From Escherichia coli (lineage in GTDB: Bacteria > Pseudomonadota > Gammaproteobacteria > Enterobacterales > Enterobacteriaceae): a DNA stretch of 64,000 bases. The notes beneath the pieces were generated by a model. The model did no database searches and was not told the DNA's origin. It worked only from the letters and a program-made list of their open reading frames with translations. Below are positions 34,758-54,565 of the stretch, one piece after another. The translations under genes and the position numbers were made by a program. Numbering within the stretch: the stretch's first letter is position 1; every line of letters begins with the position of its first letter. Location: NCBI RefSeq assembly GCF_003334305.1, contig NZ_QOWS01000011.1. One strand, given 5' to 3'.

Positions 34758-34774
34758 TTGGCTCCTCTGACTGG
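34758..34774. repeat. 17-bp att core at the tRNA-Asn 3' end (single copy)
   Basis: ttggctcctctgactgg overlaps the tRNA 3' end; no second copy found by eye between 3300 and 4320. Confidence 0.6.
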
Positions 34775-34834
34775 ACTCGAACCAGTGACATACGGATTAA
34801 CAGTCCGCCGTTCTACCGACTGAACTACAGAGGA
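34759..34834 (-). tRNA. asnT: tRNA-Asn (GUU)
   Basis: 76-nt minus-strand sequence reads TCCTCTGTAGTTCAGTCGGTAGAACGGCGGACTGTTAATCCGTATGTCACTGGTTCGAGTCCAGTCAGAGGAGCCA; the copy next to mtfA is asnT in K-12. Confidence 0.9.
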
Positions 34835-35825: not shown

Positions 35826-35915
35826 GGAGAGATGCCGGAGCGGCTGAACGGACCGGTCTCGAAAACCGGAGTAGGGGCAACTCTACCGGGGGTTCAAATC
35901 CCCCTCTCTCCGCCA
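35826..35915 (+). tRNA. serU: tRNA-Ser
   Basis: 90-nt sequence GGAGAGATGCCGGAGCGGCTGAACGGACCGGTCTCGAAAACCGGAGTAGGGGCAACTCTACCGGGGGTTCAAATCCCCCTCTCTCCGCCA with long variable arm. Confidence 0.9.
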
Positions 35916-44793: not shown

Positions 44794-44884
44794 AAAAAAA
44801 AGCCGGCATCATGCCGGCCCAAAAAATATAAACAAGACGATAAAAGGCTAATAACGGAGGCATCATGACACAGAATAATAAAAA
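44794..44884 (-). ncRNA. rseX: Small RNA in the yedS-yedR spacer, probably RseX; ends approximate
   Basis: Minus-strand hairpin GCCGGC-AUGAU-GCCGGC followed by U8 with no CDS upstream; TACAAT-like -10 box (44896-44891) about 90 nt upstream; contains an anti-Shine-Dalgarno stretch (CAUGAUGCCUCC). RseX maps to this spacer in K-12 (from memory). Confidence 0.5.
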
Positions 44885-50500: not shown

Positions 50501-53040
<2,540 letters not shown>

Positions 53041-53219
53041 TTACCAGGATGATTCTCAAAACAGCACAAATTATCAAAGATGATTTTTTCGGGAGCGATC
53101 CCGTTGACGCCAGAGCCACCAAGGGGTGACGCGCGTCACATTTCTATTCATAAGTAGCGTTAATCATTCATATCACGAATATTTTCTTGTCAGCGAAAAA
53201 AATTGCGGATAAGGTGATG

Positions 53220-53306
53220 AACACATCAGATTTCCTGGTGTAACGAATTTTTTAAGTGCTTCTTGCTTAAGCAAGTTTCATCCCGACCCCCTCAGGGTCG
53301 GGATTT
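53220..53306 (+). ncRNA. dsrA: DsrA small regulatory RNA
   Basis: AACACATCAGATTTCCTGGTGTAACGAATTTTTTAAGTGCTTCTTGCTTAAGCAAGTTTCATCCCGACCCCCTCAGGGTCGGGATTT matches DsrA as I remember it; three stem-loops with a terminal hairpin plus T-run on the plus strand and no plus-strand CDS upstream. Confidence 0.85.
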
Positions 53307-53319
53307 TTTTATTGTGCAT

Positions 53320-53547
53320 TCAACGATTCACTTCAGAGACGCTGAAGTCATGAATATCCAGTTCGAAGGCATCCGCCAATTCACGCCATGTATGATATTC
53401 ACGTCCATCGACGCTAACGTGTTCAGAATCGTTCTGGCTGCGATGAACTTCGCTCTCGCTAATTTCATTGATCGCCGCCAGCAGGGCATCGACATCGACG
53501 CTGACCTCACGTTTTGCGGTATCGCTGTACTCTTTTGCGGTTTTCAT
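53320..53547 (-). CDS. yodD: Small stress-induced protein YodD
   Basis: 75 aa from MKTAKEYSDTAKREV... Confidence 0.8.
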   Translation of the reverse strand: MKTAKEYSDTAKREVSVDVDALLAAINEISESEVHRSQNDSEHVSVDGREYHTWRELADAFELDIHDFSVSEVNR

Positions 53548-53619
53548 CATCTTTCCTCGCAACCGTTACTCTGTTGTTGCCGCCAGTCGTTAAGTCCGCC
53601 TGGCATCTCTTAAGTATAG

Positions 53620-53898
<279 letters not shown>

Positions 53899-53941: not shown

Positions 53942-54565
53942 TTAGCGCATGTTGACAAAAATACCATTAGTCACATTATCCGTCAGTCGGACGACATGGT
54001 AGATAACCTGTTTATTATGCGTTTTGATCTTACGTTTAATATTACCTTTATGCGATGAAACGGTCTTGGCTTTGATATTCATTTGGTCAGAGATTTGAAT
54101 GGTTCCCTGACCTGCCATCCACATTCGCAACATACTCGATTCGGTTCGGCTCAATGATAACGTCGGCATATTTAAAAACGAGGTTATCGTTGTCTCTTTT
54201 TTCAGAATATCGCCAAGGATATCGTCGAGAGATTCCGGTTTAATCGATTTAGAACTGATCAATAAATTTTTTCTGACCAATAGATATTCATCAAAATGAA
54301 CATTGGCAATTGCCATAAAAACGATAAATAACGTATTGGGATGTTGATTAATGATGAGCTTGATACGCTGACTGTTAGAAGCATCGTGGATGAAACAGTC
54401 CTCATTAATAAACACCACTGAAGGGCGCTGTGAATCACAAGCTATGGCAAGGTCATCAACGGTTTCAATGTCGTTGATTTCTCTTTTTTTAACCCCTCTA
54501 CTCAACAGATACCCGGTTAAACCTAGTCGGGTGTAACTACATAAATCCATAATAATCGTTGACAT
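53942..54565 (-). CDS. rcsA: Colanic-acid capsule regulator (LuxR-type auxiliary activator)
   Basis: 207-aa ORF with C-terminal LuxR-type HTH and a long AT-rich upstream region. Confidence 0.9.

Follow-up and report, generated by a model that had tools for sequence, protein, structure and literature searches.

The DsrA RNA of Escherichia coli K-12 is entered in the curated MG1655 record as 'small regulatory RNA DsrA' (dsrA, b1954; 2025223-2025313, minus strand). In the published model its stem-loop 1 and the sequence after it open an inhibitory hairpin in the rpoS leader, activating translation, and pairing of part of Linker1 and of stem-loop 2 with the hns, mreB and rbsD mRNAs blocks translation, with Hfq assisting (PMC5766208). 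Hfq is bound by DsrA and, upon that binding, stem-loop 2 unfolds (PMC5766208). Temperature control of DsrA expression has been reported, with induction at low temperature (PMC4152358), and low pH induces it as well (PMC5766208; PMC4152358). The sequence of the spacer in the dsrA promoter influences both its activity and its regulation (PMC2613000). RprA and ArcZ, which also activate rpoS translation, are like DsrA in being Hfq-dependent and in opening the ribosome-binding site by pairing with the upstream arm of the hairpin in the rpoS leader (PMC3937726). They differ from it in being products of other genes, with other sequences, Rfam families, chromosomal loci and inducing signals.

The stretch of E. 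coli DNA analysed here, 64 kb in all and referred to at that full length as the window, carries at 53220-53306 on its plus strand what is, with practical certainty, the chromosomal dsrA gene encoding the small RNA DsrA. Compared with its K-12 counterpart, the RNA is identical, as are the core promoter and the terminator tail, the neighbours and their orientation are the same, the same three stem-loops are predicted and the complementarity to rpoS and hns is the same (the targets being taken from K-12). The only difference is three substitutions 45-88 nt 5′ of the start in the allele of the window. There is nothing novel in the RNA itself: DsrA is already known, and the E. coli copy is ordinary.

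Covariance-model match and distribution

The whole window was searched with all 4227 Rfam families under the curated thresholds, which gave four matches. The best of these is to RF00014 (DsrA) at 53220-53306 (+), with a score of 102.5 bits, where the gathering score is 60, and an E value of 1.5e-18; it spans model positions 1-85 of 85 and is not truncated. The DsrA model already encodes cross-species covariation, and by its boundaries the length of the RNA is 87 nt. No other sRNA family among the 4227 overlaps 53220-53306. The K-12 feature is 91 nt, with four extra T's, and is equivalent to 53220-53310 of the window. When window positions 53130-53330 (201 nt) were aligned to the reverse complement of the K-12 MG1655 stretch, identity was 100% over the DsrA RNA, the T-tail, 44 nt 5′ of the start and 20 nt past the T-run. 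The initial annotation had called DsrA at exactly the coordinates of the RF00014 match, and had pointed to an Rfam scan and an alignment to K-12 dsrA as ways of checking the call. Both bear it out, the former with a full-model match above the gathering score and the latter with complete identity over RNA and T-tail, and nothing contradicting the identification was found in the checks run.

The 87-nt sequence is found in 5339 of 5426 complete E. coli genomes, with at least 99% identity in 4974 of them; DsrA is near-universal and near-invariant in the species. Two of the approximately 5340 matches (in the searches with dsrA and with its upstream region) are on records classed as plasmids and not on chromosomes. 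Such matches may come from replicons assigned to the wrong class or from pieces of chromosome that plasmids have captured.

Elsewhere in the window, RseX at 44795-44884 (−) gives a full-length match to RF01401 (99.0 bits, gathering score 50, E value 1.9e-12). In strain A7 the equivalent place, between drpB and a porin gene, is without a feature in the PGAP record, as is that of dsrA.

Fold, terminator and target complementarity

The minimum free energy fold of DsrA, at −31.9 kcal/mol, consists of three hairpins, all of which are also in the centroid fold; shuffled sequences had a mean of −16.7 (z −4.67), and none of 200 folded as well. Stem-loop 1 (nt 4-22; 53223-53241, +), with its AUUUC pentaloop, is in both this fold and the Rfam consensus structure and, together with the linker that follows, makes up the rpoS-pairing region, the best local duplex involving nt 9-41. 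Its limits match those of the NMR-defined stem-loop 1, nt 4-22 (PMC5766208). The A/U-rich linker (AACGAAUUUUUUAAG) and stem-loop 2 occupy 53242-53278 (+) and hold the hns-pairing nucleotides 31-43, which are window positions 53250-53262. Stem-loop 3 has 10 pairs, 7 of them G-C, and a 5-nt loop followed by TTTTTTT. The terminator scan gives its stem at 53280-53304 and the T-run at 53304-53310 (feature 53280-53310, +), with T53304 being both the final base of the stem and the first of the tract. Its form is that of the Rfam consensus structure, and it fits the NMR-based account in PMC5766208, where stem-loop 3 is the Rho-independent terminator. The terminator-like site found by the scan is in keeping with the plus-strand rho-independent terminator that had been noted from the letters. 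An AUUUC-loop stem-loop 1, a stem-loop 2 and a GC-rich stem-loop 3 with its U-tract are all present, as are the A/U-rich linker and the 3′ U-tail.

The yodD stop codon (53320-53322, minus strand) is close to the terminator hairpin of DsrA, at a distance of only about 10 nt. In the direction of yodD transcription the hairpin is followed by ATGAAACTTG, with no U-run. With this sequence in place of a U-run on the yodD side, the hairpin lacks the look of a canonical bidirectional terminator.

Neither rpoS nor hns is in the 64-kb window, and the target sequences used were those of K-12 and not of the strain of the window. Duplexes of full-length DsrA with the whole rpoS leader or hns mRNA, when left unconstrained, contained very large interior loops and were dropped as uninformative (for rpoS the duplex barely beat its controls, with 62 of 300 shuffles as good). 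Therefore 35-nt local windows of the target were tried against DsrA nt 1-60, and perfect runs of pairing were counted. In the 597-nt rpoS leader the best duplex pairs DsrA nt 9-41 with −127 to −96 at −33.0 kcal/mol, to be set against a mean of −23.0 (sd 3.0) for mononucleotide shuffles, a null somewhat weaker than that of dinucleotide-preserving ones; z is −3.3, and 2 of 200 shuffles reached the energy. Within this duplex is a perfect run of 12 nt, nt 20-31 with −118 to −107, matched by 3 of 1000 shuffles. For hns the longest perfect run is of 13 Watson-Crick pairs, DsrA nt 31-43 with +7 to +19, directly after the start codon, and was matched by 1 of 1000 shuffles. By duplex energy alone hns is not distinctive (z −1.4, with 18 of 200 shuffles reaching it); what speaks for this site is the unbroken pairing of 13 nt, placed as it is at the start codon.

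Complementarity to both the rpoS leader and the initiation region of hns is present when the K-12 targets are used, and the positions of predicted pairing fit the published model of DsrA (PMC5766208; PMC4152358). That DsrA would act on rpoS and hns, as the initial annotation had it, is supported by this complementarity and by its agreement with PMC5766208.

Promoter region and its upstream allele

A putative core promoter of dsrA, read by eye and identical to that of K-12, is at 53187-53215 (+). It comprises a −35-like TTGTCA (53187-53192), a 17-nt A/T-rich spacer and a −10-like TAAGGT (53210-53215), with the RNA starting at A53220. TTGTCA and TAAGGT are presumably the elements of the dsrA promoter dealt with by Repoila and Gottesman in 2003. 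The dsrA promoter was not reported by a consensus promoter scan, because TAAGGT matches TATAAT at just 3 of 6 positions, and the miss is no evidence against it.

The sole differences from K-12 in the 201 nt aligned are at 53132 (C, where K-12 has T) and at 53174-53175 (CA, where K-12 has GG). They are at −88 and −46/−45 relative to the start of DsrA, and so outside the RNA and outside the core promoter from −35 to +1, which is the same as in K-12. The 90 nt upstream of +1 (53130-53219) are present at 99% identity or more, which for a query of this length is an exact match, in 1155 of the 5426 complete E. coli genomes; the other genomes have the upstream 90 nt at 95-99% identity. An allele found in so many genomes is a common natural variant. 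The substitutions might mark a natural allele of the dsrA promoter, carried by approximately one fifth of sequenced E. coli, that alters the amount of DsrA or its response to temperature and so shifts the balance of RpoS and H-NS between lineages. We regard this as improbable and see no reason for the allele to matter.

The same three substitutions (53132, 53174-53175) could in principle touch an upstream regulatory site, and this is the one opening for the view that dsrA has become an inactive pseudogene, or has been silenced, in the strain of the window. It is a very slender one. No base separates this copy from the functional K-12 gene in the RNA, in the core promoter (−35 to +1) or in the terminator, and on this identity decay or silencing was rejected; in addition, the locus is intact and syntenic, and many complete genomes (approximately 1155 of 5426) have exactly the same 90-nt upstream allele.

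Locus, annotation gap and proposed action

The open reading frames of the window were matched to the annotated genes of strain A7 (NZ_CP028767.1), which is 100% identical. The gene order dgcQ, yedP, dsrA, yodD, dsrB, rcsA, fliR is the same in the window, in K-12 and in strain A7; in K-12 dsrA is flanked by yodD (b1953) and yedP (b1955), with dsrB and rcsA past the former and dgcQ past the latter. In the window the corresponding coordinates are 52207-53022 (−) for yedP, 53320-53547 (−) for yodD, 53710-53898 (+) for dsrB and 53942-54565 (−) for rcsA, with fliR next. Transcription of dsrA is divergent from yedP and convergent with yodD. The gene is in the orthologous position, downstream of rcsA and between yodD and yedP, as a stand-alone unit. 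Its placement between yedP and yodD had been given correctly at the outset, and so had the lack of a plus-strand coding sequence upstream: yedP is read from the minus strand, and between dgcQ and dsrA no plus-strand coding sequence is annotated.

PGAP-annotated RefSeq records show no feature at dsrA (the outcome for the 87-nt query is 'none', and the record of strain A7 is without an ncRNA line). Its absence from an ORF track, as given in the initial annotation, is what would be expected of a gene for a non-coding RNA that PGAP leaves unlabelled. That a small protein is encoded here instead of, or besides, the RNA regulator is scarcely credible: the six-frame list does hold two open reading frames, of 33 codons on the minus strand (53173-53274) and of 116 codons on the plus strand (53263-53613), but both have TTG starts, neither is annotated in the curated K-12 or PGAP records, the longer is merely the antisense of yodD, the DsrA sequence is without an ATG, and the conservation is fully explained by the Rfam match together with the strong signal of RNA structure. 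Coding potential was rejected as negligible on both strands.

Further away in the window, at 10000-34900, is the yersiniabactin cluster (irp1, irp2, ybtQ, ybtP, ybtS and others), which is the High Pathogenicity Island. It adjoins tRNA-Asn (GTT) at 34759-34834 (−), the classic site of integration for this island. Several strains match the island stretch at 100% identity, and 2233 of the 5426 complete E. coli genomes contain 80% of it or more. A tRNA-Ser (CGA) at 35826-35915 (+), found by both Rfam and ARAGORN, is separated from the tRNA-Asn by mtfA, the same as in strain A7. The island, present in the strain of the window about 18 kb from dsrA, is not known from K-12; it is unrelated to dsrA.

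With DsrA as the product of the locus, its action can be proposed from the literature on an RNA of identical sequence. Its gene would be a stand-alone unit with its own promoter, transcribed away from yedP toward yodD and ending at stem-loop 3, and the RNA would act in trans and be Hfq-dependent. In the rpoS leader, the inhibitory hairpin would have its upstream arm paired with stem-loop 1 and the linker, which would free the ribosome-binding site and allow more RpoS to be synthesized. This 'anti-antisense' activation of rpoS would be expected mainly at low temperature and acid pH. At the first codons of hns, pairing by the linker and stem-loop 2 region would block translation, giving less H-NS, and silencing would then be relieved at H-NS-repressed genes, probably including the nearby rcsA, which encodes a capsule activator. 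The link between DsrA and rcsA through relief of H-NS silencing reportedly has its source in work by Sledjeski and Gottesman in 1995 (PNAS 92:2003; reference 14 of PMC5766208).

The value of recognising dsrA here is for annotation only, and no new biology is offered. A scan restricted to open reading frames sees an apparently empty gap of 300 bp at this place, and recognition of the gene keeps the gap from being taken for something new. What occupies it is a textbook regulator, one that connects the general stress response governed by RpoS, and silencing by H-NS, with temperature and acid stress.
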